Of a stretch of 64,000 nucleotides of DNA, positions 5,590 through 41,030 are shown in pieces. The notes below the pieces were generated by a model. It saw only the letters and a list, made by a program, of their open reading frames with translations, did not search any database and had not been told where the DNA came from. The stretch lies in NCBI GenBank assembly GCA_032718475.1, contig JAUCBJ010007477.1, positions 62,001 to 126,000 on the forward strand. Reading direction: 5' to 3'. Both the position numbers and the translations under genes were made by a program. The stretch comes from Nemertoderma westbladi (taxonomy: Eukaryota > Animalia > Xenacoelomorpha). How positions within the stretch are numbered: the first letter of the stretch is position 1; each line of letters begins with the position of its first letter.

Positions 5590-7720
5590 TAAGTTTACAC
5601 TCACAAACACACCGTACCTACCGGTAGCCGGCTGTTGTATCAGAGTTTAACTACCAGTAGCTAGCTGATTTTACTGCATATACCAACAACGCTAAACTGT
5701 AGAACGGCAGAATGGCCCCGACAGCAACCACAGAGCTTTAGCGTTACCGGTACCATACTTACTAATAATAAAATTAAATTAAGTCGACATAGGGGTTCGT
5801 GAATGCAGCATTAGAGGAGGCCCACCTAACAATAGGCCTACTGGTACCGGCACCGTAGCACTCTTGTACCTGTATACTTGAATAGAGCAAGAGCATACTG
5901 GACTGCCGGTTTCTTTGATTTAAGGATTACGCTATTACACTTGAATGCTTCCAATTTTCTGTTTACAACTTTAATTGGTCTAATCTACATTACTGCGGGT
6001 GGGTGGGCTACTACTGTCACATAGGTAAGCCTATACAGCTATAGTTAACTTTATGCGGGGCCCTTTTTCGAATGTTGACTCAATATGGTTTATGGTTAAC
6101 CTTTAGTACTCACGGATAGGTAAGGTACACTTTCATTTGGTTAGGCATATAGGCCTAATGACTACTCCTCAACTGAAAGTTGACTAGCTCATTGATACAA
6201 TAGGTGTGGTTAGGTACCGGTAGGGCTATAGGTCCTATAAAATCCCCTCACACTCTCTGTTACTAACTTTCTACATTCACTCCTGAGCGACATCATTCAA
6301 CCAGTCATATAATGACTCCACTCGGATACAATAGGTGTGGCTCTCAGTATACCTAATTAAGCCTATATAAAATCCACCTCATTCTCTGTTACTAACATTC
6401 ACTCTATGTTGACTGTGGGACTATATAAAACATAGTTAATTTATTTATGTATTCGCTTTTTTTAATTATATAAAATAGATTCGGTCTACTAAGTTTTATA
6501 AGCAACAATAACCGATAGGCCTAACAATAACAATAACAATAACAACAACCCTAAATTTATTACTGTATTAGGCTAGGCGTATACCTTTTATAGTCCTATA
6601 TGTGGATCCGCCTGTAGAGTTTCCTCCATTGCCGGTACCTGTAAATGGTTGTTTATAGGCCGGCTAACTTCTACCGGTCTTTGTGTTGGTATATTGAAGT
6701 GAAGTGTGTCATCAACATCATTCTCCCAATTTTCGCTAGAGGGTGAGCTTCCCGATATTCGCGATGGTTGTATCTTTATAACAAGCGAGAAATCTTTTGA
6801 AATTTCAACCGTTGTAGGCGATAAAGGTAGACCATCTACTTGACCTACTCCATATTCTATATGCGGATTAGCGATATATGCTCTGGTCGTTGTTCTATTC
6901 TGAATGTAGGGAGATGCATAGCCGATGTTTTAATGATATGTACCGGTATACAGACTAGTAACAGATAGGAGGGCATCGTCTTTGACTATGAATACCAGCA
7001 CATAGCCCTAATCTTTTCTCACCGAGCTTAGCGTTGCCCACCGCACTCTCGCACACTCATAAGTAACAGATGCGCTATTGTAACTCACTCGTGAGCAACA
7101 ATGCCAAGTTAGCTAGCTAGCTACAGCCTCTGAGTATACTATGCCTACTTGAGTGTTACAAGCAACAATTGCTCTACCGAAGTTAATTTCCTCTCAAACT
7201 AGGTGTGATTTTAAAAAAATATTCATAATTTTTTTCCAACCAATTTAATATATATATATATTTTACAGTAAAAATCTCCACCACCAAACAGCAACAACAA
7301 CAATAAATTTCACTCACACTAATTATATTTTACAACAAAAACGCTCGCATCAAACAATAATAAATTATTAACCAGTTTGTTGAATATAGGGTAATATATA
7401 TGAAATTTAAACGGGGAACACATTAATGTACATTTACCTGTGTAGAAGCAGCAAACAACAACATTATTATTTATTCTGACTTTACAGTTATTGAATATTT
7501 CAGGTTCATATATAACTTGAAGTTGCACATTATCAAAGACAACATAAAACCCAGTATTGTTTATCAATAACCTATAGACTACAGACTTAATACTAAAAAT
7601 ATAAGTACATAAATTAACAGATTTTAAAATCAAATTAATACTAGTTTTATCAAATATATGCTTTTTTACTTTTTGGAAATTATACTTACTGCCTAATAAT
7701 GTAATACGACCATTTTTAAA
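5590..7720. repeat. Convergence region of element A, homologous to 38830-41020
   Basis: Colinear shared blocks in the same orientation, e.g. AATTAAATTAA.TCGACAT, CCCTTTTTCGAATG, GACTATGAATACCAG.ACATAGCCC, and the TBP-like 3' end. Confidence 0.85.
6588..6860 (-). pseudogene. Remnant of an ENWE-motif protein, homologue of 39567-39953
   Basis: Hand translation ISKDFSLVIKIQPS..SENWENDVD aligns with MKNFTLNVRIQPG..QENWEDG. Confidence 0.55.
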
Positions 7721-7900
7721 TATTAATAATGTGGCACCAAATATCTTATATATAAATTGATTTGGTTTGAGTATGTGTTTACCAGATAATTGATTTTTTA
7801 ATTCTTTAAAATTAATCGCTAACACTTGCTGGCAACTTATATTTTTATTTACTATTTGATAATTCATCATCATCAATACCATCGTCTTTTGGTTCTTCAT
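7319..7900 (-). CDS. TATA-binding protein (TBP)-like protein, copy 1
   Basis: Two TBP-type repeats: IVN..PNQF..ATLLIFKNGRITLLGSK and SVN..YEPEIF..VVCCFYTGKCTL. The probable start (about 7870) overlaps the pPolB stop. Confidence 0.8.
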   Translation of the reverse strand: MKNQKTMVLMMMNYQIVNKNISCQQVLAINFKELKNQLSGKHILKPNQFIYKIFGATLLIFKNGRITLLGSKYNFQKVKKHIFDKTSINLILKSVNLCTYIFSIKSVVYRLLINNTGFYVVFDNVQLQVIYEPEIFNNCKVRINNNVVVCCFYTGKCTLMCSPFKFHIYYPIFNKLVNNLLLFDASVFVVKYN

Positions 7901-10900
7901 AAATTGGTATATTTGATATTTTTATAGGTTTTTTGAGGTTTGTTTTATAGTGCCCCCAAGGAAGCGAATGATTTTTATTAACCCAATAAAGTTTATCGTC
8001 AAAGCTACTGAGTGCAAATTTATTTTGCTTTAAGGTATAAATACGATGTAATTTAGATTGAAATCTGTGTATGTTTTTTTTTATTTCTTCATTTGAGTTA
8101 TAGGCTTTTAAATATTCTTCATGTGTAATATTCGTTTCCACAACAGCTCTTGTAATACCTTTTGCTCTACGAATATTTTTGTTATTCCATTCCAAAATTG
8201 AATATAATTTTGGTCTTAAAAGTACTGCTTGTTTAATTTCACGTGAGGCTAGTTCGTCTTTACAGTAATAGAGTTGGGATTTATTTTTATCGCTGTAGAG
8301 AGGGTGATCCTTAGGGTAATTGGAAGTATCTAAAATATTATTTTTAATTAATGCTTTTAAAAAATTATTCTGCGATGTATTATAATAACAACCTATCAAA
8401 GAGTCAGTGTCTGATGCAGCAATTTCAATACGGCAGTTTAATTCTTTCTCAATAGGTAGCAATTTATTGTAAAACAGCTCATACATATCCAATTTAGCCA
8501 AGTCCAACATAGCGCTACCAATAAATATAGGCTTATCGAGAGTTACAGAGTCTTTCACTAATAAATGTCCCGATAATGTATTATTGTATATTATAAATTG
8601 TTCATGATTAATACGATTTACCAATTGATCGCATTTATCGTTGCTATTTGCGATACGAAAGTTACATCAATCTCTTATCTTTTCTATTGATTTGCCAAAC
8701 AGCGAATTATTGAGCAATTTCGCGACGGCAGTTTCAATGTAACTTTTTGCTAGGCGCCTTTGATTAATATTAAAATCTATGTAATTTTTAAATACAAATT
8801 CTTGTTGAAAAGAATATAATTTATGGAGCTTAGTAACAATTAATCCATGTTTTATATAAAATTTTAACAGTTTCAAATGTAAATGATAAAACTCTTTATC
8901 AAATTGCGTCAGCAAGAGTTTTGGTGTAGACATCCTATATTTACGGGAGGTACCTCTTTGTATCGATAAATTATTAAATTGTTCCCGCATATAAGGCGAA
9001 AGCATTGTTTCATTTATACTTAAATGCTCTGGGGCTAACAGTAATTGTAATGTTTGATCGTGAATAGCCTTGGGATAATTTAAATCACATATTAAAAAAT
9101 ATCCAGTAGATCCATCAATGTCTAAATCTACCAAGTACTCGATTAGTTTTTCTGGAATTGCATTCTCTAAATGTTTAATACTTACTTCTTTGAATTGCGA
9201 GGTGGGTAATTTTTTACTTAAATTCCCAGAATATAAAGAGTTGAAATCAATATTAAAAATATGGCATTCTTCCTTAGTAGAATCATATGTGTTTGTTCCA
9301 GGTATATTTGATTCTATATAATGCTTTCGACAAAATGAAACACCACCCCTAATTGATTTTTCAAAATCTCTATATGTTTGATAATCCTTTATTAATTCTA
9401 TTTTACATTTATTATATTTTAGTGCGCAATCATAGGTAAATGACGCAATACTACAGTAAAAAACCACTTCTAAATCGTAATTTTGTTTACAAACATTCCT
9501 AAAATTCTCAAATATATCAGCAAGCAAACAAACATCGAGTTTTAAATAGGCTAAAAGATAATCTTTGAGATTCACACAGTCGAATTCTACCCATGATAAT
9601 CCAGCAAACCTATAATCTTCAATTGTGCATGTTTTTTGTGTTAAGTTACTAAAAAAATTATTTATAGACGGCAAACCAGTATCATTAAATTTATTAATAT
9701 CTGTCAAGTACTCGTATGGAAATACTCCTTTCCGTTTAATTGTTGAGTTATTCAAGTTTGGATAAAAATATTTCATTTCTTGTAGAGTAATAGGTAAAAT
9801 TTAGCTTATATCATGACTCGCTACATCCTTTGTTGAACACTCAACTAAATTTCTTAGGGAAAAGCTTAAAAATTGATATGTGTCTAAGAAACGTAACTCA
9901 ATTTTTTTAGAAGTGTTTTTAATTGGGATAAACGCACTCAGTGAAATATATCGTTCTGTATTTTTCAGTATAACCTTTATATCCCAATTGGTGTATTTCT
10001 TATCTCTAAATCCGGTTTGTAATATACAATGTATATCATAATTACTGGAATTGTGCCCGCAAAGTACATACAGGTATCGTTTCAATGATAAACTTCGGTT
10101 ACAACTATTACAGGCTGCTGCAATATATTTACCAGTAATATGTGAATGATGTCTGTTTTTCCCAACATTATTATTTAAAGTAACATTACAATAGAAACAA
10201 AATTTTGCTTGTTCAAAATTTACAAAATCAATATTAGTAAATGACATAGTTTTATGAGTGTATATGTCTGACCAACAACATAATTCAGTTAAATCAAAAT
10301 ATAATGAATCTAAGAAATCTTGAATACAATTATTATTATTATTTGACTTTACGAATGTTTTCAAATGACATTTTGGGGGGTTAATTAATTCAGTATTGGG
10401 AACAATTAAATAACTCGCAGCACACGGTATATGCTCCTGTATAAATTGATTATTAACTGAAGGTTGTAAGATACATTCTATATCAAAGTAGGTGACAAAC
10501 AATGGGGATAAGGTTCTATCTAAATTTGTAAAACTAATGTGTGTTCTTTTTTTATTAGGTAGTTTCTCGCGCTGACTTCTTCCTTGGTAGCATGCAAGAC
10601 GGTGTCGTTGGAGAACTTCCGATTGAAAAAAATGAGCCAAACACCTTTCACAATATTTCCTACTCCCGATATGAAGAGCTCTCGTATTCAGCAATCGATT
10701 CAAGTTAGTTATGCAAACATAATGATTCGGTTTAGGTACATTGTTATTTTTTACTACAAGTAATATATTTAATAACTCTTTATCAGGTGTAATTTTACTA
10801 AACGGTGGTTGTCTTAATATAGATACAGGGGCGCGTTTGTTGTCGTTATTCCAATATAGTAAATTAATTATATATTTTGAATTTTGTTTTTCAAAAAGTT

Positions 10901-11909
10901 TAATCGCTAACACCCACTCTGTTGGATAATCTTTGTTCCCGTTGTCAAAAATGAAATGACTCATATAATTTTTGTACGATGAAGTACGGTTTTTGTGATC
11001 TTTCACTTTGCTACTAAATTTTGCGGATATAATTGCCCATTTAAAACAGTCATTATCAGACGATTGTACATTTATAACACATTGTTTACCTGTTAGAGCC
11101 TTAGGTAATTCCATATATCCATGCCCCTTATATAGTAACGACCTACACTTAGATGCAGCTAATTTAATTTCAACCCTTAATAAAGATTTAATACGCCATC
11201 CCGAACCACGTGTGTTAAAGATGGCTATTTTTTGTAATATATTTCCCAGCACATACTCAAACCAAGTGTCAAAACTTTGCGGTGAATCTACAGTATTAAT
11301 AGCACCACCGGAAGAATTAAAATCAAAGGTTTCCAATTGCTCACCTTCTGAAAAATGTGATCTGTACATTAATACATTTAGACCTAACCACAGTCTAAGA
11401 ACATTCATTTCTTTCAATCTATCTAATATTAACTGAAGAATATTACCTCGAATTTGCGTTACTGCTGTTTCTACATCGGGATAATCTCTAGAAGTTGGGA
11501 GGTCATGGACATAAATTGCAAGACGATTATCGTGAGCTTCTTGTTCCCGCGTAAAAATTGTTGCGCATGTACCAAGAGCCACCCTTAAGTTTTTTCTGGA
11601 TATTATATTTTTATGTTGCGGAAATTTACGCTTTCTTGTGTAGTAACATTTCAAGTGACAGTCGTGTCGTATATAATTCTCATATGTATACTCTTTATTA
11701 CAGGTAGAACAAGTCAATTGATAGGTGCGGAAGTCCATTTCTTTACAACCAGTAGTCGATTCATGTCGTTTACAAATTTCGCTGCATGAAGTCACAACAT
11801 GACACTTAAAACAAGAATAACTTTCAAAATGTGACCATAGGTGGTGTAAGTAATTATGTCTAGTTACATTCATATGACAGAATGAACAACATATTGTTAT
11901 TTTATCCAT
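7845..11909 (-). pseudogene. Protein-primed DNA polymerase B, lineage A (single frame, two nonsense codons)
   Basis: ExoI YFDIE, ExoII HNSSNYD, ExoIII YLKLD, motif A DFNSLY, motif B KLLNNSLFGK, motif C SDTDS and RAKG. The N-terminus has Zn fingers, RGSGW, CFKWA..HY and an endonuclease VII-like C..C..RHHSHITG..ACNSCN. The three track ORFs are in frame, separated by TAA (9801-9803) and TGA (8667-8669). Confidence 0.95.
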
Positions 11910-12165
11910 GTTGAAGTTTGTTAGTTTGTTTAGATAAATAATAATAATAATAAAATATCTCCAAAGATTAAAATGAAATGAAATGAAATTAAATGTTATT
12001 GACTACATCTAAACATTTATATGCTAGCGAGGGAAATAATTTTAAACCAATCACAAATCACCAATCGCTTATGACTATTGGAAACCGCAAAGAGTTTAAC
12101 TTATGATTAGGCTTACATGTTAGGATAATAATCTGGTTTCCATGGAGAATTAGTAACAGGCTCTA

Positions 12166-13176
12166 CTAGAACTGGGTTACTGACAACTTCTGTTTCTTTG
12201 CAGGTGATGCGTTGGTAAATTTACTCGATGATCTTGGCTTCCGAGGTAATATTTCAGGAAAGACCTGTTGCGGTTGAGAGCAAATCTCTTCAACATCCGG
12301 ATTAGGTGATGGGATCTCTACAAAAGCTTTAGGTTTATCCAAAAGGACAAAACCGTCAACATGGGCTTCAGTAAGAGAAACGCCATCCAGTGATTCTTTG
12401 AGAAAACTAATATGGGCTTTATCATTCAAGTAATGCAACTCGATAGAATTTCCGCCGGCACCTACTTCAGTAGAATTATCGGTGTTGGTGATAATAATTT
12501 TTTTATTATTGGTTTTAATCATTTTGAGACGGTCTGATAATTGAATGATATTTTTATCAAAAAGATGCTTGTCTGTTTCATCGACTTGGATGTCCCACTC
12601 TCGCAACAAAACGGTTAGTTCCTGTTTTGACAAATTGAAACCCGTATAATAGTTAAAACCAACACTATCAGTGTATCTGAGGCTGATTTTCCATAAGCCA
12701 ACATAGTTGGTTCCTTTAAAAGCTGTTACAAATCCAATAAACTCTGGATTTGATAATTCAATGTAGAATTGATCGCTAATAATCTCTAGCGGTGGAGAGA
12801 GAAATTGCAATAATTTCCCTCTGTATTGAATTAGAACTTCAGTAAAAGCTTTGTTGAGAACTTTACATTTGCCTTGTTTCTGAACGTAAACATCACCCGA
12901 TGTGGGGTTGATGGAAATATTCAAATTTCCCCGCGCAAAACGAAGAGTGGGATATATCCTACCTGGTATAATTGCTGGTCTGGATTGATGTTGGTTTTTG
13001 TTGGTTGTTTCTAGAATGTCTAACAAATAGCGGGTATCTTGATGGGAAAAACAAATTGATTCGTTGTCCTCCTGAGATTCCACAATAAAATACTTGCTGT
13101 GAACGACGGTACAAGTATATTTATTGTAAGTAAATTTCCAGCTATTTGTTGCTCCGGTTTTTTGCGTTAAGGCCAT
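12166..13176 (-). CDS. Hypothetical protein with PC4/p15-like ssDNA-binding domain and C-terminal NLS-like tract
   Basis: FVTAFKGTNYVGLW..YYTGFNLSKQEL resembles the PC4 V..FKG...I.I..G.SL..EQW pattern. Homologous to 28407-29729. Ends SPAKKQKL. Confidence 0.55.
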   Translation of the reverse strand: MALTQKTGATNSWKFTYNKYTCTVVHSKYFIVESQEDNESICFSHQDTRYLLDILETTNKNQHQSRPAIIPGRIYPTLRFARGNLNISINPTSGDVYVQKQGKCKVLNKAFTEVLIQYRGKLLQFLSPPLEIISDQFYIELSNPEFIGFVTAFKGTNYVGLWKISLRYTDSVGFNYYTGFNLSKQELTVLLREWDIQVDETDKHLFDKNIIQLSDRLKMIKTNNKKIIITNTDNSTEVGAGGNSIELHYLNDKAHISFLKESLDGVSLTEAHVDGFVLLDKPKAFVEIPSPNPDVEEICSQPQQVFPEILPRKPRSSSKFTNASPAKKQKLSVTQF

Positions 13177-13273
13177 AATAATAATAATAAATACGAAAAA
13201 TATTACAAGTGATAAATTTTAAACCGTATCGCTGTAATAAATTGACACCATAGTTCTCACTCTAAAATTGTGA

Positions 13274-13433
13274 TGGTCGGAAGACGACACCAGAGAAAAA
13301 TGATGCTGAATTCGACATTAGGTATCGACTCAAAAACAAAAATCGGGTGAGACGCGTAGCTCAGATTTTCGTTTTTAGGTCGATACCCAATGCTGGAATC
13401 AGTATCATTTTATGTGGTGTCGTTTTCCGACCA
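13274..13433. other. Imperfect ~160-bp hairpin (inverted repeat)
   Basis: TGGTCGGAAGACGACACC..AGGTATCGAC..AAAAAC pairs with GTTTTTAGGTCGATACC..GGTGTCGTTTTCCGACCA. Confidence 0.9.
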
Positions 13434-13519
13434 ACAAATATACAACGAGTAAGATAATGTAGAAATTATTAAGGAAATAACACAATGTCAGAGTGAGAAC
13501 AAAAAAAATTAGATATGGT

Positions 13520-14461
13520 ATCAATATATTACCATAAAGATTACAAGTGATGAATTTTATTAAAAACATTCAGTTATATATAAATTTGTGATGGGGCATA
13601 GTCAACGAAGAAGAGTTGGGACGTGTCATAATCATCGACGAATAAGAAAAGAGATGAGGTGCAACGTGGTTGAATGGTTGGTTGGTTACGTGGATAGGAA
13701 ATATGTGAAAGAATATGAATCATAGGGTTGTGTATAATAATAATCAATAATTATTATAAAAACGCACAGTATAATGTTAGTAGTAGTAGTAGCCTTTCAA
13801 TACGGCACAGATGCTGCGGGATCGGTTAGCTTGAGTAACTACTTGGAAATGTTCGTATACGTTTAGCTGGAACGTGGCGGAATTTCATGCACATGTATCA
13901 TACTGTGTGGTTGGTTTGTTGGTTTGGCGACAGCAGTTGAGTAGCTCTATCAACGGAGAGACGTAAATCGTTGAGTTGGCAATCGATATAATATACTGTA
14001 ATATAACGACTTGGTATATGCATCGTGTAGATGGTCACGTTATCGTTTTAGTCACCATATACAGTATGTGGAGGTGGTAGCGTGGCGAAAAGGGGAATAA
14101 TTGGAGGGTGTATCGCTGTTGGTTGGCTGGTGAGTTGGGGGCTAGCCATGCGTCGAGAAGTTAGGCTACGCGAAGATGAATATGTAATGGATGGTTGTTG
14201 CAGCAGTGATACGAATCAATACTATCGGATGGTAGGTAGGTAACAGCTGCCGATGAGTAAGGTGGGCAACGCGAGGTTAGGCTACGTGTAGGTGAATACG
14301 CTACGATTGGTTGATGGTAACTACCTCGATGGTGACAGATGTGGCCAATTAAACACCGTAATTTAGCATCGGAATTTGGCGTTTTTAATAGTCCTCCGAG
14401 TGGTATGGCCATAGCCCAAGCTAGGGAGGACTTCCTCGGGGTCACCTCTTCTTCTACTACT
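13520..14461 (-). repeat. Polinton TIR (right end of element A)
   Basis: Homologous to 61770-62535 (direct) and to 41313-41830 and 63348-63905 (inverted). Homology stops at ACTACT, the reverse complement of the 5'-AGTAGT Polinton terminus. Confidence 0.85.
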
Positions 14462-15343: not shown

Positions 15344-15998
15344 TTATTGTACGTGATCAACCCACCGATGTGCTGCAAAACCAACAAATTTAACCAAATA
15401 TTGCTTTTTGCCGCTTTTATTTACTTTTTCTTTAATTATTTTTTCAATTGGTAGGAATTGAAATGGTTCTATTACCTTTTGGATTTCATGTCGATAAAAT
15501 GTCCCCTTTATAACGCGCCCATTCGAGTCCACAACTTCGTACATAGGGTACGGCTCTCGATCCAATCTTATTCTATAAATTTCGAAAATTTCTACTGTAT
15601 AATTAGGTGTATAACCTTTGTCAAATGGCTTTCTAGCTAAACTCAGCCGCACCTTATCACCAACCTTGAAATGAACTCGACACTGTGCGCGACATTTTCT
15701 TTTATTGGGATGACCCACACTCCCATATAGTTTTAAAAATAGGTCAGTTTCATTCTTTTTATTGACAGAGTTTGGTGCCATACCAATGGTTCTATGTATT
15801 GAATTATTATATGCAACCAATATTTTTGGCAATATACTCATCCATTCTCTATTCTGTCTCCTCGTGAAAATTCTGTACATGCGAGATTTGAGGGTGTGAT
15901 TCAGCCTTTCACAGATACTAGCTTTAAATTGGCTAACTAATGTATAAAAATGAACATTATTATTCTGTAAGAAATCTTTCACCAATTTATTAACAAAC
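15344..15998 (-). pseudogene. Retroviral-like (rve) integrase with C-terminal chromodomain, N-terminal half deleted
   Basis: EFVN..KASICERLNHTLK..YNNSIHRTIGMAP..FKVGDKVR..KGYTPNYT.E.F..IEKIIK..YLVKFVGF..WV. Both catalytic Asp residues are missing. Confidence 0.9.
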
Positions 15999-16691
15999 TC
16001 AGGTGTGGTGTTGGTGAGGTGTGTTAGAGTTCATATTCGCGGGTTGATAAACAGTTTGCCCTAATGGGTTGAAAATATCACCCCTAACTCTTATACTATC
16101 ATCCGTTTTTTGATGAAAGTCTAAGAGAAGGTGTGTGAATGGTTTTTGTGTGGCGTCACTATATGCTTGAACAATAAAATTGCTATTTTTTGGGTACACT
16201 TGCCGCGCTATATAGCTTATTTGACTTGCGTCGCGGGGATTTTTTGTGAAAATACAATATTGGGCATTTAGACTTCTAGTCCGTGTTTCCGCCCCTTTAC
16301 TGAAGAAATTTTGTGTTATATAGATAATGAAACAGGAAGTATGATGGCAGGTTTTTGTGAAGCTTTCTGTCAAACTCTCATCACTCTTACTTTCGCTTAA
16401 CAAGTCGTCTATAATAATTAGATCGTTTTCGCGGAAAATAGAATTAATTTTTTGCGGTAAACCTTTGAATAGATGTGTTATACCCGGGAATTCTGGTGGG
16501 GTGGCGCCATAAAAGAATAATACACGGTTCGGGGTTATATCAAAAACTAATTTTTTATTTTTTACAATTTTTGATACCAACACTGTTTTTCCGGAAGAAC
16601 TTGGACCCGCAATAATCATGGCCGAACCCATCTTGAAAGAGGCGTCGTATGATGTGATTGGTTCCCGTGATATCGTCGGCTCTCGGGACAT
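15999..16691 (-). CDS. A32/FtsK-like genome packaging ATPase
   Basis: Walker A GPSSSGKT, Walker B LIIIDD, then IYITQN, RSLNAQY and KNPRD. Confidence 0.92.
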   Translation of the reverse strand: MSREPTISREPITSYDASFKMGSAMIIAGPSSSGKTVLVSKIVKNKKLVFDITPNRVLFFYGATPPEFPGITHLFKGLPQKINSIFRENDLIIIDDLLSESKSDESLTESFTKTCHHTSCFIIYITQNFFSKGAETRTRSLNAQYCIFTKNPRDASQISYIARQVYPKNSNFIVQAYSDATQKPFTHLLLDFHQKTDDSIRVRGDIFNPLGQTVYQPANMNSNTPHQHHT

Positions 16692-16708
16692 TGTTGATAG
16701 GTAGCCAC

Positions 16709-17170
16709 TCAGTAGATCGGAAACCTAGAAACTTGATGGTTGACGCGTGTGCCAGAGGTAGTAGGTCTATACCCCCGGCGGGATTGGGCTAATTTTCTGC
16801 CTCTTACAGCCGTTATTATGGGTGATATTTTCTGATAAGCGTTAAGCCCACTCATTAAACCAGAGATTAGTAGATTTATAAATCCGCCCCTTTGCACCAA
16901 TCGTTTACGATAAATTCGAATGGAATACTTGGCTTTTGGTTTTTTAGCGATCTCGCGTATTGTTTTTTTATGGCGTTTTAACCTCGCGATTGTTTGCTCA
17001 GGAATTTTTACGTTACCATTTAATACATTTAGAATAATATTAATTAGAAAACTTATAAGTTCGTCGGTTCCGCCGACACGTAAGAAGGTTTTTCTACAGT
17101 TGGGGGAGGCGTTAGATAAGAACATTAAATCCCCATCAAATTGTTTAATTAAAGCTTTGAGTGATTTCAT
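16709..17170 (-). CDS. Conserved Polinton virion protein with QRGG|F cleavage site and amphipathic helix
   Basis: LNVLNGNV.I...LKRHK..IR..A..LVQRGGFINLLISGL, located upstream of the ATPase. Confidence 0.7.
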   Translation of the reverse strand: MKSLKALIKQFDGDLMFLSNASPNCRKTFLRVGGTDELISFLINIILNVLNGNVKIPEQTIARLKRHKKTIREIAKKPKAKYSIRIYRKRLVQRGGFINLLISGLMSGLNAYQKISPIITAVRGRKLAQSRRGYRPTTSGTRVNHQVSRFPIY

Positions 17171-18779: not shown

Positions 18780-19274
18780 TCAAAATATCCCGGGTCTTGC
18801 CATACACACAACATTTCGTGTGTAAAAAACGCAAAATGTTATGATATTAGAACTAGTTTTACCCCGACGATAAAACTGCACAAGAATATTATTAAATAAC
18901 TCCGGCTCATATTTCACCTCCACATTATAATAATTATCTAAAAAATGAAACCCAACCGTTTTCATTAATTTGCTATAGTCTATGTCTAGATTGTTAATAA
19001 TATAAGTTTGGCTATTGATTGAAATAAAAGTTAGTTTATAATCAGTATGCTTATATATATACTTAATAATTTTTTTTATTTTAGGTGATTTACCGAGTAC
19101 AGTGACCTTACCGCTCGGGAAAAAGAGACACGTCCATCCGCAAATTTTGGCGATATATTGAAAAGGCTTTAAGATGAGTTTTCCATTTCGAATTCGTTTA
19201 GCCAGCACATCGAATGATATGCACCCATCACCCAACCTCAAACTTATATTACTGTTGACAACGCTAAAAGACAT
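18780..19274 (-). CDS. TBP-like protein, copy 2 (divergent)
   Basis: VVNSN..KPFQY..TCLFFPSGKVTVLG and SIN..YEPELF..FCVFYT. The start overlaps the pPolB stop; the 3' end may be truncated. Confidence 0.8.
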   Translation of the reverse strand: MSFSVVNSNISLRLGDGCISFDVLAKRIRNGKLILKPFQYIAKICGWTCLFFPSGKVTVLGKSPKIKKIIKYIYKHTDYKLTFISINSQTYIINNLDIDYSKLMKTVGFHFLDNYYNVEVKYEPELFNNILVQFYRRGKTSSNIITFCVFYTRNVVCMARPGIF

Positions 19275-21027
19275 CGCAATCCGCTATTCTATAATGGGCG
19301 GCAGGCATATAAAGCTTAGGAGCGGGCGCTTTACGATCCAAATGTGTTTTATAATGGCCGTAAGGTAGACTTTCATTAGTCGATGTGTAGTACCTTTTAT
19401 CTTCCCACAGTGTTAGCGATTTTTTTCTTTGTGAAACGGTGTATATTTTATGTAAATTAGATTGAAACCTTTGACTGTATTCGTAATGCTCGCTAACCTC
19501 GTTATATACTTTTAAATATGATTCGTGGGAGAGTTTCTTTTTTATAACCATTTTTCCTACGCCTTTAGCGGCACGTTTTGGAACTGACCCCCCGCGAAAG
19601 CTATAACATTTTGGTCTAAGTAAAATAACCTGGTCAAACGGGATAGACTTCCCTTCATCCTTTAAATATCTATATTTCCCTTTCTGTTCTACTGTATACA
19701 ACGGATGTGTAATAGGATAATTTGAACAGTCTAAAACTTTTTTTGATTGTAACGCAGATAAAAATTGGTGTTGGGATAAACCAACACACTGTAAAAAAAA
19801 AGAATCCGTGTCCCCACCTAACAAATTTATACTACAATTTAATTCGGCTTCCATGGGCTTTAACTTATCGTAGAAAAAAGTGTAGTAATCTAACTTTGAC
19901 AAGTCCAACACAGCTTGGCCTAAAAAAATAGGTTTATGCAAACAAACCGCAGTCTTAGATAGGACGTGACCTGATAATGAATCAGTGAACATAATTAAAT
20001 TTTCGTGATTCGGCTTGGATAATAATAAGTCACATTTCTCGATTGAATTACATAAGCGAAATGAGACACGGTCCCGTATATTCTCCATGCTTTTCCCGAA
20101 AAGCGCGCAATTTTTCTTTGCTGAGTGTTATATTCAATAAAATCCTTAAAAATGTAACCTTGCTTAAATCTAATAAGTTTATGAACTTTAATCAAGCGCA
20201 TACCATGATGAATATAAAAGCGCAATAATTTTAGATGCACACCGTACTCATACTTATCAAATTGGGTTAACATCAATTTTTTTGCTGGGCTATTGAAAAT
20301 TTTATCGCCATTATAATGTCGCCAAAGACTAATGCCTAATGTGTGGGCTGAGATACCTACTATCGAGTTTAATATGCTCCGGTGCAAATGGAAGCTCAGC
20401 TGTGGCATCATGAATAGTCATTGGGTATTCAAGGTCTACAATTGCGAAGTATCCATATATATCGTCAATTTCCAGACTCATGATATCGACACTATCAACA
20501 TCCAACCATTCAAAGTCAGAATAAGGAAGTTTCTCTGACAAAGAACCGCTATATAAACTGTTGAAATCTAAATTATATAAATGAGCTTCAGGTTTATTAG
20601 GGTCGTATGTTTCTGTGCCTGGTATATTCGCATTTGCCACATGAAGGTTGGTGTAAGAAACTCCACCCCTAATGGAATTTTCGAATGTTAAATACATTTC
20701 ATGGTCTGCAAGTATGGCGTCTGATTTGAGCCAAAATACCTTAGAATTACAAATGTGTACCTTACATTTTTCATTAGCTTATATTTATAAGCATCGCTTA
20801 AAAGTATGGTATTTTATTTCATTTGAATTTATACATCGCTTAAAAGTAAGCTATGTTTATGTAGTTGACATTAATAAATCGCTTAAAAGTAAGGTATTTT
20901 TTACAAGTTCTGTTAAAACATCGCTTAAAAGTAAGCTATGTTTATGTAGTTGACTTTATTAAATTGCTTTAAATATGGTATTTAATTGCAGTTCTGTTCC
21001 AACATTGCTTAAAATTGTTTGCAGTAA

Positions 21028-21225
21028 TATAGTTTAAAGTAAGCGATGTTTATACAGTGTCGTTTAAACATAGTTTAAAGTAAGCGATGTTTTTACAGTG
21101 TCATTTAAACATAGTTTAAAGTAAGCTATGTTTTTACAGTGTCGTTTAAACATAGTTTAAAGTAAGCTATGTTTTTACAGTGTCGTTTAAACATAGTTTA
21201 AAGTAAGCTATGTTTTTGCAGTGTT
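21028..21225. repeat. 41-bp tandem repeat (about 5 units), mirrored at 22880-23040
   Basis: Unit ATAGTTTAAAGTAAGC(G/T)ATGTTTTTACAGTGTCGTTTAAAC. Confidence 0.9.
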
Positions 21226-23099
21226 TTATCCAATCAAATGCATTGTTGACAATATCTGCAATTAGTAAATAGATCACAAGAGGGCGCTGTTGAGCAATTG
21301 TTGTATTCCAGTATATGAACAGCTAGATCGAATTTCTGATATGTAGGGTACACGGTAAGGACAGTACGGTTAACAGTATACAGTAGTTACACTGCAGTAC
21401 GTACAGCATCCGAAAATTTCATCTCGGAAATTGTTAACCTAATACGGAGGTGCCAACAAATTTCAGAAGATGAGACATTTTCAAACTTAAATATAATAGT
21501 ATTGTAGTAAATATATAAAGTATTGGCCACAATCATCTACAACACATAACCGAATGTAATTCTTCTGCCTTGTAATGGTATGTTACCAATGCAGCTGTTG
21601 TTGGTGTATTATTCACCTATTGGGCCATTGTATTTGCTAGTTCATGACAAATACATGGTGAAATTGGAAGTTCTAGAGAAACATCGACTTAATGAAATGG
21701 TGATAAAACATTTTGGTTTTATTTATAACTAATATAGTTATAATTAAAAAGGTTCCTATTTAAGAAAACATAATATTTGGGCCCATTAAACTTGAATAAA
21801 TTTAAATAAATATAATAATTGTCACATTACGAGCAAATTATCCTCGCAAAGCTTTACTTTTCCACAGCTTTTCTTTCTATTATGATATCATAATTAATAG
21901 TATCGGAAGGTATATACTTCATTGGGTATGGAAATTAGTCAATAATATGTGAAAGTTATTTACCTTTGTTTGTTACACATAAAATATCTGACAAGTGGGT
22001 GGTGAAAAAAACAGCCTTTATTGTGTCTAAAACATTTAAATACTTAATGTGTGCTGGTTATGATTAATTTTGAAAATTGAACTTTTAAATTGAATAATAT
22101 ATACTGAAGAAGGCATGGGTGGGATCCGAAACTTGTCATGCATGTTTCCCTTATCCATGTTACTACTCATGATTCATTTCAAGCACCCATCTTTTATCAG
22201 ACGCTTGCAGTGATGTTCTGAAGTATGGCGATTTTTGAAAGTTTCAATTTTCCAGATGATGGTATGGAAGTCTGACTTGCTGGTGGTACATGAAAATTGT
22301 ACCACAGAACCCACCTTTGGTATATCTAACTATTTACTAAATGTTTTGGGCTACCCACTAATCAGACCACTCTAACTCAAGCCTCAAAAATACAAAATTT
22401 GTCGAAAAGTCCAATCTTTGCCCATATAGAAAAGTTGGTCTGACAAGTGGGTGGTATTTATTCATGGTTTTAATGTGTATGAGACCTATTTATGTGTACA
22501 ATAAACATAAAATGACACTCCACCCACTATAGTCAGAAAGATTTCCTGTAGATTTCATTGGGGATATGTTCGAGTAAATCGCAAACTTTGAACTGCAATA
22601 TCTCGAAAACCAATACACCATCATCAGAAATATTTCATCAGGTGTCATTTTATACCATTTCCGACCATATATCCAAAAATAAACGAAATCGATGACCCCA
22701 TGCCACCGTGATTTATCGAATTTGGATGGAATTACCCCGTACTGTCCGTACCGTGTCCCTTCATATCAGAAATTCGATTTTGCTGATCGAATACTGGAAT
22801 ACAACAATTGCTCAACAGCGCCCTCTCGTGATCTATTTACTAATTGCAGATATTGTCAACAACGCATTTGATTGGACAAAACACTGCAAAAACATAGCTT
22901 ACTTTAAACTATGTTTAAACGACACTGTAAAAACATCGCTTACTTTAAACTATGTTTAAACGACACTGTCAAAAACATAGCTTACTTTAAACTATGTTTA
23001 AACGAAACTGTAAAAACATCGCTTACTTTAAACTATATTACTGCATAAACACATACTTCATTTTAAGCAATGTTGGAAGAGAACTGCAATTAAATAAAT

Positions 23100-23912
23100 G
23101 TGGCTGGCCACGAGAAAAGGGACCTTATGTCACCGGAGGTCGATTTTGAGTTATTAGGCCTATGAGATGCAGAATTTTCCAGAGATTTTAACAAAAAAAA
23201 CGGTGTCTCAATATCTATTTCCAAAAAAAAGTTATAGCGATATATGTGAAGGTGAATCGGGTAGCAAAAAAGATTTTATTAATAGCGGTTATAATAAGCG
23301 ATTATTAAAAAAAATGGAAAATATTAATAATATCATAGCGATTCTTACTATATAGTTAGGCAGCTCAATGTTATTCGGCTTTTTATACAACATTTAACAC
23401 TTTGAAACTATTAATATTGTTCATGAACTATTTTAAAAAAAAATTTTGCAAAATTTTTTTTTAATTTAAAATTTTTTCAAAAAGATAAATTTTTTTAACA
23501 AAATTTAAAATTATCTGTATTTTGAATTCTTTATTAGGATTATAAAATTTAAGAACTAACGAAGACAAAATTAAGAAAATGACAGCCATATCGCATTTAA
23601 AAAATAACTGTAGGCCTACAGTACCTACATATTACAGTAGTACAATTACAATTTATTACAGTCCTAAATTCAGACATGAAAACCCTAAGACAGTGTTATA
23701 TACAACACTGCAACATCTTATATTGCTTCCTGTAATTAGTTATTTCCTAGGTATCTTGAATATCAGAACCAATTTGAATTTCCCTCATCGTTTTATGCAT
23801 TTCTAAATTGATAATCCAATTAAATTTGTTCAAAAATAGAGGGAAACTTTAAACGCGATTATCTCAGAATCAGGTTTTGCGACATAAGGTCCCTTTTCTC
23901 GTGGCCAGCCAC
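23100..23912. mobile_element. MITE with 32-bp TIRs and AAAT TSD (Sola-like), nested in the foldback arm
   Basis: AAAT|GTGGCTGGCCACGAGAAAAGGGACCTTATGTC ... GACATAAGGTCCCTTTTCTCGTGGCCAGCCAC|AAAT. The superfamily call is tentative. Confidence 0.85.
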
Positions 23913-26900
23913 AAATACCTTATTTAAAGCGATTTATTACAGTCAATTACATAAACATAGCTTTCTTTTAAGCGATGTTTTAACAGAACTTGTAAAAAAT
24001 ATCTTAATTTTAAGCAATTTAATAAAGTCAACTACATAAACATAGCTTACTTTTAAGCAATGTTTTAACAGAACTTGTAAAAAATACCATACTTTTAAGC
24101 GATTTATTAAAGTCAACTACGTAAAACATAGCTTACTTTTAAGCGATGTATAAATTCAAATGCAATAAAATACCATACTTTTAAGCGATGCTTATAAATA
24201 TAAGCTAATGAAAAATGTAAGGTACACATTTGTAATTCTAAGGTATTTTGGCTCAAATTAGACGCCATATGCAAGTAGACGAATATGTGACTTGGAAAAT
24301 CTCATACCCGCGTCCCAACTAACCCCCGCCATCGTGTAATAGTTCGACACCTCAAGCGAATAATGTTTAGTACAATATGCACGAAAATTTTCAAAAATAT
24401 CGGCTAGCAGCAACACGTCAAGATGTAAGTAAGCTTCCAAATAATCAAAAAGTGTCTTACATTGAAATTGCTCCCACGAAAGATGTGCAAATGTATATTC
24501 TTCAGGGCTAATAGATGATAATGTTAATTCACTGCAAAACTCTTTTGGATGCGGTAATTTAGTATCCCCCAATTTACTTAAGGAATCGACATATTCGTAA
24601 GGAAAAACTGACTTATGGCGTAAAATTTCGTCGGTAACATTTGGATATAATTTTCTCATTTGCTTCACGGTGTGTGGAATAATGGTTGTTAAATCTGACA
24701 CATCTTTTGTCAAAAACCCAGCCAAAGCAGAAAGGGAAAATCCCATAAACGCGAATGAATCAATAAACTGTATAGTTATTGATTTGCTGGTTGGGAGCCC
24801 TCTTACGTCCTTTTCTGGAATAGCATAACCAAGCACGCTAAGTGCTTCTGACGTTGGAATATCGATGCGGAGTGAGATATATCTTTCAGTATTTTTTGCA
24901 ATGGTTTCAATGTTCCAATTTTTATATTTACTACCAGCAAACCCTTTTTGTAAAATTAAATGTGAATCATAAAAAAAAAAAATTATGACAGACAACTGGG
25001 AATAGGTGACATTTAACGCTTAATTGTTTATTACAGGAAATACACGCCGCACCAATGAAAGCCCCGTTGTAATGGTTGTGATGCATCACACTTGGATTTA
25101 TATCTTTCCGAAAAAATGATTTACAATTAAAGCAATTTGTGGTACGCATATAAGCTTGGTATTGTGTGTGATCCAGGTGTTTGGGGTGGTGTGTGTTAAA
25201 GGTAGACCATTCATAACACTTAAATAAATCAAAAACCAGACTATCGATAAAATTCTGTACCGAGTTATTATCGATATTTTGTCTAAATGTAGACAAAAAA
25301 TAATTTGGGGGGTTAATTAATTCACCGTTGGAGACAATCAAATATGAAACAGCCGACGGGAGATGTTCGGCTATATAATATTTTTTTACATTATTTGTTG
25401 GGGCTAGTACCACTTCGAAATCCATATATACTATGAAAGGTGTGCTCACAGACTTATAGTAATTAGTAAAGCGTAAATTCAGTTTAGATGGCATCTCCTC
25501 TATTTGGCGCCCGTCTTGCCAACACCCTAATCTATGGCGTTCTAACGCATTTGGACTGTAGAAACCGCGAATACACCACTCACAACGATGACAATGATAC
25601 TCGCTATTGCCTTCCCCACGACCATTAAATAATCTATTTAAGTTAGAAACCCCGACGATGTGATTTGTTGAGGTTAAATTTTGACGTTCAATAAGCAATA
25701 AATTTAGCAATCTTTTGCCTTCAGCTTTTTTAGCGCTTGGTTGCCGTAGAAAGGAAATTTTTTCACTACTTCTATCAAAATACAATAAATTTATTAAATA
25801 ATTTGGATTATTTTTTTCAAACTTTAGAATATTTAGTTTCCATGATAGGGTAGAGTCTAATTCGCTTAAATTAAAAAACCCTAAATACTGATTATAAGAA
25901 CTTTGGCGTGAAACATGGCGCAGTGTGTGATCATCCGATATATGTTTTGAAAATTTTGCTGTCAGGACCGCCCACTTAAAACATTCACCTTCATTACACG
26001 GTACATTTATTATACAATGTTTATTTTTTAATTTTGTTGGGATTGATTGGTTGGCATCACCGCTATGTCCGAAACGATATACCGATCGCAAGTATGACGC
26101 AATAGTAAGTTTGATGCGCGATAGAGTTACAAGTTTCCAGCCGCTACCCCGCCTAATAAATTGCGATATTTTTTCACCGATATGGGAAATGACTGTGTAG
26201 TACCATTCGTCAGAATCCGAGCTATTTTCAATATAATTATCTGTACCGATCGAAGTAAAATGGAATTCTTCTTGTAGAGTATAATTAGCATCATCGCGTT
26301 CCATTATCACCGAAGCAATTAACCACACTTTATAAAACATATCAATAAAAGCCGATGCCGCCGTGTTAAAAGCGCGTGAAGCATATAACCCCATATAATT
26401 TAAATAATTCGGCACATCTGGATACATCTCATTAGATGACACATTATGGGTATATTCCTGAACGCGTGATTCGTGGCATGTTTTTGATAGATGAAAACCT
26501 TCGTTCGGTGTATCTGAGCTGTTTGTAATGCTTACAGGCGAACCAACGTTGAGATCCGGTTGAAATGTCGGTTCTGATTGTTTTTGGTTATGTTTGCGTT
26601 TGCGGGAATTGTAATGGTTTTGATGGCAACTATGTTCGATATATGAATCGAAGTTTTCAAAATCATCAGAGCATGTCGGGCAGGATAGCGTGTAACCGCA
26701 GTAGGTGTAATTCGGACGAGACAACCCGCAACATCTATTACTGTGAAATATTGCTATTCTTTCGAGTACAGTAGTTCGGCAATTACAATTATCGCAAACA
26801 TACCCATCGAAATGTGTGCGTAAATGCCGTAAATAATTTTTCTTAAGTATAGTACAACCGCAAAAAACGCAATTAATCTCCATCATTATAATTATTATTA

Positions 26901-27179: not shown

Positions 27180-27812
27180 TTAATATGCGCGGTAAAATGC
27201 CGAATTAATCTCTTCCCCATACGGCGTTAAATTCGTCGGTAAAACCCCAAAATAATCATCCGAATAAATATTAGAAACGTAGAGTATTGCCGCATTACAT
27301 TGTTGGCATATAAGCTGGCATATTTTATCGCCCGATGTTACAACGTATTCCTTAGATGTGTTGTTAATCAATATAATTACAAGTTGATCTATATTACCGC
27401 GCGCGACGCTGGAATCGACCGCACATTCTGCAACATCAATGCCAATTTTTGCCAAGCTAAAAGTCGGTGTAATTCTTCCAAAATAATTGGCGGGTAAATA
27501 TATTTTAACACCCGTCTCAATTAACATTCGTGAGTGCGGCTCTATTGTTCTATTCACGGCGCTATATATGTCAATCCCAGCTGGACTATATGAACCGCAT
27601 ACAGGCGCCCGAGCTGCTGGGCTTAACAATTCAATTTTAATTGGAATAATTGAATTAGGACCGCGGTAACTATTTTCAGCTTGTATTATTGGAAACATTT
27701 TTTCATTACGACGTATTTTACCTAAAAAAATACCAAAAAGAAAGGTAACAATGAAAAATATATTTGAAAAAATAATCTTATCTATAGACTCAAGCTGCCC
27801 TAGTATTGCCAT
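27180..27812 (-). CDS. dUTPase-like protein (trimeric family, degenerate motifs)
   Basis: AGIDIYS (motif 1), FGRITPTFSLA (altered motif 2), AVDS (altered motif 3), GDKICQLI (motif 4). No clear Gly-rich motif 5. Hydrophobic N-terminal segment. Confidence 0.8.
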   Translation of the reverse strand: MAILGQLESIDKIIFSNIFFIVTFLFGIFLGKIRRNEKMFPIIQAENSYRGPNSIIPIKIELLSPAARAPVCGSYSPAGIDIYSAVNRTIEPHSRMLIETGVKIYLPANYFGRITPTFSLAKIGIDVAECAVDSSVARGNIDQLVIILINNTSKEYVVTSGDKICQLICQQCNAAILYVSNIYSDDYFGVLPTNLTPYGEEINSAFYRAY

Positions 27813-28406: not shown

Positions 28407-29729
28407 TTGTTGATGGAATCTGTGAAACCATCACAACCAAAAATGATGTCATTAAGCGGTAGCTCTACTGATAGCGCGCCCGCCCCATACGTATCGGTGA
28501 TTACAGGTAAGAGTGTGTGGGGCCTCGAGTGTTTGGGGGAAGGAATAGAAATAAAAGCATTTAACGGGAAATACGTTCGATTCAACCGTTGGGGTGATAC
28601 CAAAGGACGCAACATCGTGCAAGAATCGGTAAGTCTTACTTACCAGAACATAAGATTCCTGTTTGACTTCCTCAATTATAATAAAATAGCCGTTGAATAT
28701 TACAAGGAATACACATACAATACACAATACAGGAATACACAATACAATTTGCTTATAACACCGATAAATCATGCGTACTTACGCATTGGGAAAAACGGCG
28801 CATCAATTTTTATCTCGCGAAAAATTCTAGATGTCTTACAAAGCATCTACGGCAAAGTCGTTCTTTCCCGTATTGAACCAAAAAAGAAGGAAATTCATGA
28901 TGAGAATTTTATGGAGTTCGAAGATTGTGGGTACATTGGATATATCTACGACTTTGAAGGGCAACGATTTGTCGGCGTTTGGGAAGCGGATGATATAGGT
29001 AGACAGCGGAAGGGTGTTCTATATTACGATGGGTTGAATCTCAGAGCGGATGAATTCTGTTTGCTCGACTTTAACATAGATAAGAATGTTAACGAGAATA
29101 TCGATGAGGTTAGTATGAGGTACACATCAACCGTTAACAAAAACGGGATATATTTGTCCCACAACTTCGACACCAAGGTTATTTTCATCCCTCGAAACAA
29201 CACAAATGTCAAGATAATTAAGCAATTACAGAAGTACGCGGACCACGATATTCCGTCTGGGTGTGAGTTTCTACCGATTAAAAAGTTAGTTGTTGAGGCT
29301 GCGATTGATGAATTAGTGGACGAGGAACTAATGAAAGTGGTAATGCCGAACAACGCTAGTCAGCTGAAGACGTCCGAAGCAGTAAAAGTCGCTGCTAAGA
29401 AAATGGATGAGAAAAAAATCTGGTTGCCTGCGATTGCAGAAAATGAACGGGTAGACGGCGCTGAAAAAAAGAATGATTATAAGGATATTGATACCCTCGT
29501 TGGGGGTGTGAGCGCTCAGATGAAGATGAAAACACCTAAAGCCATGAAAGAACAAGCGCTTAAGCGAAAAATTGATCTCATCGTGAATAAAACACCTAGC
29601 TATGAGTATGAAGATATCAGCGACTTCGAAGAGGACATCGTCAATGATACGGATGATGGTGAAGACATTTTCAATGAAATCGAGACTAATGGGCAACCTC
29701 AAATAAAGAAGAATAAACATTCAGTGTGA
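28407..29729 (+). CDS. PC4-like repeat protein with acidic/basic tail
   Basis: IKAFNGKYVRF..SVSLTYQN and IYDFEGQRFVGVW..DGLNLRADEF. Homologous to 12166-13176. Acidic tail followed by KKNK. Confidence 0.55.
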   Translation: MLMESVKPSQPKMMSLSGSSTDSAPAPYVSVITGKSVWGLECLGEGIEIKAFNGKYVRFNRWGDTKGRNIVQESVSLTYQNIRFLFDFLNYNKIAVEYYKEYTYNTQYRNTQYNLLITPINHAYLRIGKNGASIFISRKILDVLQSIYGKVVLSRIEPKKKEIHDENFMEFEDCGYIGYIYDFEGQRFVGVWEADDIGRQRKGVLYYDGLNLRADEFCLLDFNIDKNVNENIDEVSMRYTSTVNKNGIYLSHNFDTKVIFIPRNNTNVKIIKQLQKYADHDIPSGCEFLPIKKLVVEAAIDELVDEELMKVVMPNNASQLKTSEAVKVAAKKMDEKKIWLPAIAENERVDGAEKKNDYKDIDTLVGGVSAQMKMKTPKAMKEQALKRKIDLIVNKTPSYEYEDISDFEEDIVNDTDDGEDIFNEIETNGQPQIKKNKHSV

Positions 29730-31130: not shown

Positions 31131-31313
31131 TTCGTAGGCAGTGTTGCTGCAACGAGCCGGACATGGTTAAATTATTATTATTATTTTGTGGTGGTAAATT
31201 ATTTGTTGGTATAATGAATTATCGATTGAAATAAATATTATATAAATTTATTTGTTTATAGTATTATACATTATTATTATTATTATATACACATTTATTT
31301 ATTATACGTGAAT

Positions 31314-35151: not shown

Positions 35152-35399
35152 GTATAATAAATAAAATAAATATGTGTATAATAATAAATGTATGATACTA
35201 TAAATAAATATATTTATATAACATTTTAATAATATTTATTTCAATCGATAATTCATTATACCAACAAATAATTTAACAAATTAAAATTTTCCACCACAAA
35301 ATAATAATAATTAGTTAACCATGTCTGGCTCGTTACAGCGACACTGCCTACGAACGTGGACTATTTATATAATAAAGTTTCTACCACTCGAAGATTTAC

Positions 35400-39566: not shown

Positions 39567-39953
39567 TTACCGGTACCATTTATAAATTGGTTGCTGTTGC
39601 GGTTCCGGTTCCGGTTGTGAATGTGTCACAACAACATCATTATCATCATCTTCCCATGGGTTGTTTGGGGGTAACATTGGATTTGTTATACCATCCTCCC
39701 AATTTTCTTGAGAAATTATACCGGTATCGCATGTATGAATTTCGCTATCGCCGGGTTGAATTCTCACATTTAATGTGAAATTTTTCATTGTTTTAAAATC
39801 AGTTATTTCGTTTCCTCTGTTATTTTTAATTGCCATATGGAATTTGCCATCTTCAAGTTTTATACTAATGTCGACTATATTTGCCGCTTGAATGTATACA
39901 TCACCAGCTTCAAGATCGAATTTCATAGAACAACTCATCACACTTGCTGTCAT
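39567..39953 (-). CDS. Hypothetical protein with acidic Trp motifs (ENWED, NPWEDDD)
   Basis: Intact 128-aa ORF with a positional homologue in element A (6588-6860). Confidence 0.6.
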   Translation of the reverse strand: MTASVMSCSMKFDLEAGDVYIQAANIVDISIKLEDGKFHMAIKNNRGNEITDFKTMKNFTLNVRIQPGDSEIHTCDTGIISQENWEDGITNPMLPPNNPWEDDDNDVVVTHSQPEPEPQQQPIYKWYR

Positions 39954-40616
39954 TTTACTGTTACAGGTTGGTTATGATTATAATATAGTATAGTATAGGC
40001 TAGAGTATACAGGTATTTTTTTTTCTTATTTTCGTTAACAAAATTATAGTTCACTGTTAGAAAAATTGAGTTTATATATATTTTTTTAGAGGGTCGCAGA
40101 TGTTTACATTACAAAATTCACATAGTTAACAAAATGCCTAACATAAACTTTTCCCATTCGGATTAGCGATATATGCTCTGTTCATTATTCTATTCTATTC
40201 TGAATAATGTAGTGAAATGCATAGCCAATGTTTTAATAATATGTATACAGGCTAGTAACAGATAGGGGGGCTTCGACTTTGACTATGAATACCAGTACAT
40301 AGCCCTAAACTTTTCTCACCAGGCTTAGTGATGTGTAATTTAGCCAGCAATAGCGATGCTCTCTGCTCACAGTCATAACTAACAGATGCGCAACCGTAGC
40401 TCACTCGCTAGCTGCGATGTTTAGCTAGCCACTGTCTCTGGGTATACTATGCATACTAGGCTGTTACAAGCAGTCGCTCTGCTGAAGTTAGTTAGTTTCC
40501 CCAACTAGTTGTTGATTTAAAAAATATTCATAAATTTCTTCTCCCTCAAATTAATATATATATATATTTTACAGTAAAAAACCTCCATCACCAAACAACA
40601 ATAAATTTCACTCTCT

Positions 40617-41030
40617 CTAATTATATTTTACATCCAAAAACCCTCCACCAAACAACAATAAATTATTAACCAGTTTGTTGAATATAGGATAATATATATG
40701 AAATTTAAACGGAGAACACATTAATGTATATTTACTGGTATAGAAACAGCAAACAACAACAATATTATTTAATCTGACTTTACAGTTATTGAATATTTCT
40801 GGCTCGTATGAAATTTCTAGTTTGACATTATCAAATATAACATAAAACCCGATATTGTTTATAAGTAACCTATAGATTACAGTGTCAATACTAAAAATAT
40901 AAGCACATAAATTAATAGATTTAAAAATCAAATTAATGTTTGTTTTTTCAAATATATGCTTTTTAACTTTATTAAAATTATATTTTCTACCAAGAATTGT
41001 TATTCGTCCATTTGTAAACATTAATAATTA
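40617..41030 (-). pseudogene. TBP-like protein, copy 3 (5'-truncated)
   Basis: MFTNGRITILG..YEPEIFNNCKVRL..CCFYT; close to copy 1. Confidence 0.8.

Follow-up and report, generated by a model that had tools for sequence, protein, structure and literature searches.

TBP-like proteins of herpesviruses have been described to bind TATT late promoters (PMC4893493). In Starrett et al. 2021 (PMC8502044; preprint 10.1101/697771), TBP appears as a label in the legend of Fig. 5, within the section on the non-animal dataset, while the text of Supp. Fig. S2 of the same paper, which presents maps of animal adintoviruses, carries no TBP label. Beyond this legend, no other link between Polintons and TBP was found in the literature searched (Repbase and subscription papers lay outside its scope), and the terms TBP and TATA do not occur in the main texts of PMC11161782, 10.1101/2023.08.22.554363, 10.64898/2026.10.13.758929 and 10.1101/2025.04.19.649669. 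An earlier note on the DNA described here had stated that TBP homologues are not core genes of Polintons; given the label in the Starrett legend, the novelty of a TBP-like gene in Polintons is reduced but not removed.

The window, which is the whole stretch of 64,000 nucleotides that was analysed, contains a TBP-like gene directly behind the gene of the protein-primed DNA polymerase (pPolB) in two Polinton lineages. It is a real, selected and divergent accessory gene of these lineages.

Broken Polintons and their TBP-like genes

Broken Polinton/Maverick pieces, densely packed in both orientations and mixed with other repeats, make up the window (GC 29-41%), in which no Polinton element is intact; this composition suggests an animal host. 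Three pPolB lineages with 30-47% mutual identity were identified, the third of which is represented at 43923-45808 by a 5' part that lacks the 3' end and is 30-39% identical to the other two. The order in lineage 1 is element end (AGTAGTAG at 14461), 336-aa ORF, pPolB, TBP, non-coding DNA and a converging structural module; in lineage 2 it is dUTPase, pPolB, TBP, small basic ORF, ATPase and integrase fragment (Table 1). The three copies of the lineage 1 end type have unrelated flanks, with no whole element inside the window.

Table 1. Features of the window that bear on the TBP-like genes
Feature	Position	Strand	Description
Structural module converging on TBP copy 1	772..5473	+	penton-like ORFs, basic core-like ORF, capsid-like ORF, protease, 197-aa ORF
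Non-coding DNA 3' of TBP	6861..7318	.	common to copies 1 and 3 (40156-40616), blastn 80%
TBP copy 1	7319..7867	-	whole ORF, 182 aa from ATG 7867; first in-frame ATG 7900
Lineage 1 pPolB	7845..11909	-	broken into three ORFs: 9801-11909, 8667-9776, 7845-8510
336-aa ORF upstream of lineage 1 pPolB	12166..13176	-	homologous to 28413-29729, tblastn E 4e-10
Lineage 1 terminal region	13540..14461	-	begins AGTAGTAG at 14461; same end type at 41313(+), 62535(-)
Small basic ORF, packaging-ATPase-like ORF and integrase 3' fragment with chromodomain	15344..17170	-	downstream of TBP copy 2
TBP copy 2	18780..19274	-	164 aa, in-frame stop before last helix
Lineage 2 pPolB	19264..26886	-	broken; inverted-repeat-bounded insertion at about 20713-24269
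dUTPase gene upstream of lineage 2 pPolB	27180..27812	-	Pfam dUTPase E 1.9e-16
TBP copy 3	40617..41021	-	5'-truncated relative of copy 1, no pPolB upstream

The pPolB pieces of the window have no direct Pfam match. The middle piece of the lineage 1 polymerase has 288 relatives at E<=1e-30, and among the 120 matches listed these are mostly of about 1200 aa and carry PF02945, some also PF03175. By way of these relatives, the pieces are classed, on sequence, as protein-primed PolB of the Polinton/Maverick (adintovirus) type. The 336-aa ORF gave no Pfam match and an Atlas score under 0.9; it is unassigned, with a PC4/SSB-like look.

The protease of the structural module is of the adenain type, with a Peptidase_C5 match of 24.3 bits against a Pfam cut-off of 21.3. 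The penton, core and capsid labels of its neighbours are presumptive, having been assigned from position; the capsid and penton ORFs have no Pfam match, and homologues of the capsid-like ORF are present in five of 54 other loci with a related pPolB. Within this module, 80-1272 and 1888-3080 form a tandem duplication (99.8% identical), which is either a very recent event or an assembly artefact. The 197-aa ORF (4880-5473) that follows the protease has no informative Pfam match and looks like a DxxF-type nuclease of the MAEL/DEDDh kind. In lineage 2, inverted repeats with tandem units of 41-42 nt stand at the borders of the insertion nested in pPolB. Of the ORFs downstream of TBP copy 2, the ATPase-like one gave a weak Pfam match to Pox_A32 (E 0.002) and the integrase fragment one to Chromo (E 8e-4), neither of which reaches the cut-off. 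Homologues of the ATPase-like ORF and the integrase fragment occur in three and 12 of the 54 loci, respectively; both adjoin lineage 2, and none were seen for lineage 1.

Three TBP copies with both repeats had been reported in the earlier note. TBP-like ORFs do occur at all three positions, but copy 2 ends early and copy 3 lacks its first ~48 residues, that is, most of repeat 1. Copy 1 matches PF00352 over two stretches with 32.6 bits (cut-off 22.9), copy 2 reaches 19.3 bits, below that cut-off, and copy 3 has no Pfam TBP match. The amino acid sequence of copy 3 is 78% identical to that of copy 1. At the nucleotide level, 6861-7730 and 40156-41028 are 80% identical (blastn), the homology ending abruptly at 41028 with no pPolB beyond. 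Rather than a complete third gene, copy 3 is a piece of lineage 1. The lineages themselves are as divergent as had been claimed: copies 1 and 2 share 37% of their amino acids, which resembles the identity of the lineage 1 and lineage 2 pPolB pieces (34-47%).

Homologous codons run on for about 22 positions beyond the stop of copy 2, to about 18714 (read with X), and codons 18714-18782 are in register with the last helix of copy 1. In a comparison with contigs of four runs, no difference is listed at this stop in the lineage 2 contigs of the two that cover it, X1 (depth 43,075) and X3 (9,615), a missing difference row not being proof of sequence identity; the stop is probably common to the amplified lineage 2 family. 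It may represent a recent nonsense change in the founder or a site of read-through. A TGA-as-Trp code for lineage 2 was considered and dropped, the 639-aa pPolB ORF having no in-frame TGA.

TBP homology, predicted fold and origin

Using a profile of the three copies, five proteins were found at E<=0.001 among 1.84 billion representatives, and all five are Pfam TBPs. A widened profile retrieved 151 proteins, with PF00352 in 119 of the 120 among the matches listed; searched against solved structures, it recovered 35 sequences, all of them TBPs or TBP fusions. TBP profiles built without the window sequences match copies 1 and 2 at E 4e-6 to 4e-15. A single-sequence homologue search gave none among 83 candidates, and the assignment to TBP clusters by Atlas (0.94) is weak, recognition 1913 being below threshold. 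A phmmer search against PDB returned only weak myosin matches, which were dismissed as chance.

The model of copy 1 built from a 71-row alignment has a pLDDT of 85.4 and a pTM of 0.71. Among 48,161 chains its top five matches are TBPs (Z 10.5-12.9, rmsd 3.5-4.6; next Z 8.0), with human TBP at Z 12.9 and rmsd 3.8 over 165 aligned residues, and Foldseek, which the earlier note had proposed, agrees. The fit to solved TBPs is loose: the saddle geometry deviates, helix 1' is absent and confidence is low at 91-110. As the input alignment consisted of TBP homologues and a single-sequence model failed (pLDDT 35, not used), the model indicates compatibility with a saddle and is not independent proof of it. 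The copy 1 protein is placed in the TBP family by its PF00352 match above cut-off and by a predicted fold, that of a two-repeat saddle.

The YEPE(I/L)F motif was confirmed in all three copies, the YEPE residues being invariant, and the acidic C-terminal stirrup of canonical TBP is retained. Its E-P-E-(I/L)-F spacing equals that of E144/E146/F148 of Arabidopsis TBP, which contact TFIIB and DNA (PMC10005294). Of the aromatic residues proposed to kink DNA, three of four phenylalanines are in place in copy 1 (F50, F125 and F141, by alignment with cellular TBPs) and the fourth is not. The first kinking position falls in the first stirrup, which is three residues shorter than in cellular TBPs and reads KPNQ in copy 1 and KPFQ in copy 2. 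The protein is a member of the TBP fold family that departs from the four-phenylalanine pattern of canonical TATA-binding TBP. In strand 1, the Asn is kept and the next DNA-facing Val is replaced by Asn; strand 1' is altered by N>L/S and V>T, and FPG of cellular TBPs has become FNN. The assignment of other positions to the DNA-facing or TFIIA-facing surface is presumptive. The first stirrup is the TFIIA side of TBP. The pI of the protein is 9.7.

Two trees were calculated as quick searches, with copy 3 and partial sequences left out. In both, the window TBPs belong to a clade whose members (hereafter mini-TBPs) are short TBPs, most of them without a name, found in metagenome and Logan contigs; this clade is split from cellular, archaeal and nine viral-contig TBPs with SH-aLRT 98-100. 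The nine viral-contig TBPs, found by cellular-type motifs with very divergent NCLDV TBPs left out, take their place with the eukaryotic TBPs and not with the window proteins. The window profile scores better to the mini-TBP clade (E 4e-12) than to cellular TBP (9e-10), and the mini-TBPs P0006-P0061 (~167-180 aa) have an N-x-N strand 1 and a short first stirrup like those of the window proteins. Many of them carry an acidic helix 2. The phylogenetic comparison put forward in the earlier note sets the window TBPs apart from the sampled cellular and giant-virus TBPs; as to TRF2, the trees do not group them with the TRF2-like row, but branches are long, and a forced grouping is not rejected (p-AU 0.133). 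The genomic context of the mini-TBP clade was sought in viral, metagenome and genome contigs and not found, the search yielding two giant-virus-like loci (viral contigs) and one archaeal-type TBP (metagenome contigs). No close relatives of TBP copy 1 or of the pPolB tail were found in the viral contigs searched.

Position behind pPolB, selection and upstream regions

The start of copy 1 overlaps the pPolB stop by 23 nt if ATG 7867, which aligns with the start of copy 2, is used, and by 56 nt from the first ATG; for copy 2 the overlap is 11 nt. The overlap to which the earlier note had drawn attention is present in both copies but is not special, since structural-gene junctions are equally tight (four of six in 93-5473 lie within 8 nt) and it represents ordinary gene packing. 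Many contigs of the lineage 2 family have a pPolB tail of another length, and in that lineage pPolB and TBP are thus more likely to lie end to end than to overlap. The informative point is that the position of TBP behind pPolB is kept across both lineages. Pfam, predicted fold and synteny support a TBP-fold accessory gene immediately 3' of pPolB in the two lineages. Single contigs bridge the junction in both, and TBP still follows in a variant whose pPolB tail has been replaced. The variant contigs from organism A, which number in the thousands, leave none of the 30 bins of 5400-13300 uncovered, those of TBP among them. A run X5 contig from organism B spans the lineage 1 junction (7778-8043; 18 differences and 6 gaps in 266 nt) and derives from a close relative, from contamination or from horizontal spread.

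In the survey of pPolB-TBP synteny, the two window lineages stand against 54 other loci with related pPolB (viral and genome contigs, six profiles), none of which has a detectable TBP gene. These loci are mostly distant (25-41% identity), 33 of them have at least 550 nt beyond pPolB, and only three share both the capsid-like and ATPase genes. TBP is on this count an accessory gene of some lineages, and such elements can do without it. No TBP fused to pPolB was found among 120 related pPolBs. Many related pPolBs (P0145-P0264) have the conserved basic sequence ..PxSGDV(E/V) at their end, which may combine an NLS with an overlapping start. At two loci (L049:3363-3830 and L074:9668-10189) pPolB is followed immediately by a Cys-rich ORF with only a weak Zn_ribbon_RRN7 match (E 0.055); by eye we take these ORFs to resemble VLTF3/TFIIB-type factors.

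Copies 1 and 3 of TBP diverged under purifying selection, with a dN/dS of 0.30 (bootstrap 0.18-0.52, 134 codons) and 18/9/34 differences at the three codon positions. A pPolB control pair gave 0.47 (0.18-1.51), being too close to be informative.

A uniform promoter box was looked for upstream of the element genes and none was found. The best 6-mer, ATAAAT, is present in seven of 12 structural-gene upstream regions, some of them homologous, where it is scattered from -11 to -79; its count was matched by the best k-mer in 10% of 300 shuffles (best-k-mer P 0.10). TATTAT is found in eight of 10 replication-module upstream regions (best-k-mer P 0.02) and in 55 of 380 non-coding background strands; as an ATT-repeat tract noticed post hoc, it is a lead only. 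TATAAAA, 59-82 nt upstream of both TBP starts, was set aside: in each lineage it falls within H-Y-K codons of pPolB, and coding accounts for its conservation. Partner factors (vPIC-like or TFIIB-like) were absent from the 30 window ORFs scanned with Pfam, the elements being incomplete.

Possible roles and comparison with described systems

The reading that we favour, at a probability of about one half, is that the TBP-like product acts as the element's own promoter factor, bringing host TFIIB and Pol II to element genes. On this reading, the small accessory gene that these adintovirus-type Polintons carry next to the 3' end of pPolB codes for a protein with the predicted fold of a TBP saddle. 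Three retained phenylalanines and the pI suggest that this saddle may bind the DNA minor groove; the substitutions in strands 1 and 1' and the shortened first stirrup point to an altered sequence preference, and the product might work independently of TFIIA/TFIID. As the stirrup that contacts TFIIB is invariant, the protein could plausibly recruit the host Pol II machinery, and the EPE residues would be the part that recruits TFIIB. The product might serve the capsid and packaging genes in the late phase of the cycle, a conjecture by analogy with herpesvirus vTBP only. The replication-linked late switch put forward in the earlier note would have that analogy in its favour, set against generic gene packing and the lack of a uniform late-promoter box among the upstream regions compared.

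The same invariant stirrup, set beside the changes in the first stirrup, in one phenylalanine and in several DNA-facing residues, would also suit a decoy that titrates host TFIIB or occupies host promoters and so damps host transcription. This is improbable: three phenylalanines, a basic pI and both saddle halves are more than a decoy needs, and a host shut-off gene would fit poorly with a very abundant germ-line element. A role in replication or integration, in which the protein assists pPolB by bending the terminal repeats or by binding displaced single strands, is suggested by its place beside pPolB in both lineages and by the deviating saddle geometry of the copy 1 model. Divergent TBPs can switch to single-stranded DNA, as in Giardia, whose TBP lacks three of four phenylalanines in an organism without TFIIB (PMC12209930). 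The window TBPs, unlike that of Giardia, keep three of four together with the TFIIB stirrup, and none of the 120 relatives tested has TBP fused to pPolB, so we consider such a role equally unlikely.

The stop in copy 2 bears on whether the gene is needed at all. Being apparently family-wide, it indicates that full-length TBP may be dispensable for spread within the genome, and it counts against an essential role. Together with the broken state of all elements in the window, it would agree with a relic that mattered in a viral ancestor and is now a dispensable passenger in endogenous families; the whole ORF of copy 1 and the dN/dS within lineage 1 speak against this, and we hold it to be no likelier than the decoy. 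Animal piRNA clusters are linked to TBP-related factors (TRF2/Moonshiner), and the earlier note had thought interference with them conceivable. In this case the protein would disturb TRF2/Moonshiner-type cluster transcription and thereby shield the element from silencing. The p-AU for grouping with the TRF2-like sequence is the sole point in its favour; the best trees place the window TBPs elsewhere, and the shortened part is the first stirrup, the TFIIA side, leaving this the most far-fetched of the explanations.

An extension of the promoter-factor reading is tentative and a good deal less probable than that reading itself. The mini-TBPs, of ~170 aa, may form a distinct, widespread clade of animal-Polinton proteins that act as a one-protein promoter switch, recognising an element-specific box, skipping TFIID/TFIIA and using host TFIIB-Pol II; in lineage 2 the switch may be tuned by stop-codon read-through. 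If true, the mini-TBP would be the smallest known viral pre-initiation system and would answer how Polintons time their capsid genes. To our knowledge, the activation of capsid and packaging genes in Polintons/Mavericks has yet to be explained, and an element-encoded minimal TBP offers a single small, testable protein. It is also a natural variant of a core transcription factor in which one stirrup is kept and the other remodelled.

Among described systems, the MELD viruses with adintovirus-like PolB are likewise labelled as having a TBP-like gene in a mid-size pPolB element (PMC8502044); there, TBP is a label in a legend, with no analysis of residues, position or function, unlike here. The vTBPs of beta- and gammaherpesviruses (BcRF1/ORF24/UL87) have a divergent viral TBP fold, the use of host Pol II and a proposed late-gene role, features also predicted or presumed for the window protein, but belong to a six-protein pre-initiation complex (PMC4893493), whereas no partners were found for the window protein. 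They are also far larger (the U58 model has 1005 aa), the window protein being a bare core of 182 aa with a cellular YEPE stirrup. It is not a member of the herpesvirus vPIC, which consists of a large vTBP and five partners. In Nucleocytoviricota a viral TBP fold likewise occurs, and 35 BFVD matches were found at E<=0.001, the named ones mostly from giant viruses. Many Nucleocytoviricota with TBP encode their own RNA polymerase. Cellular TBP and TRF2 have the two-repeat saddle, the YEPE(I/L)F stirrup and the three phenylalanines in common with the window TBPs, but are only 16-19% identical to them in structural alignments; the window proteins lack the N-terminal extension and differ in the shorter first stirrup and, from cellular TBP, in the DNA-facing residues of strands 1 and 1' and in FNN for FPG. 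Set against these systems, the window TBP most likely works like a minimal viral TBP.
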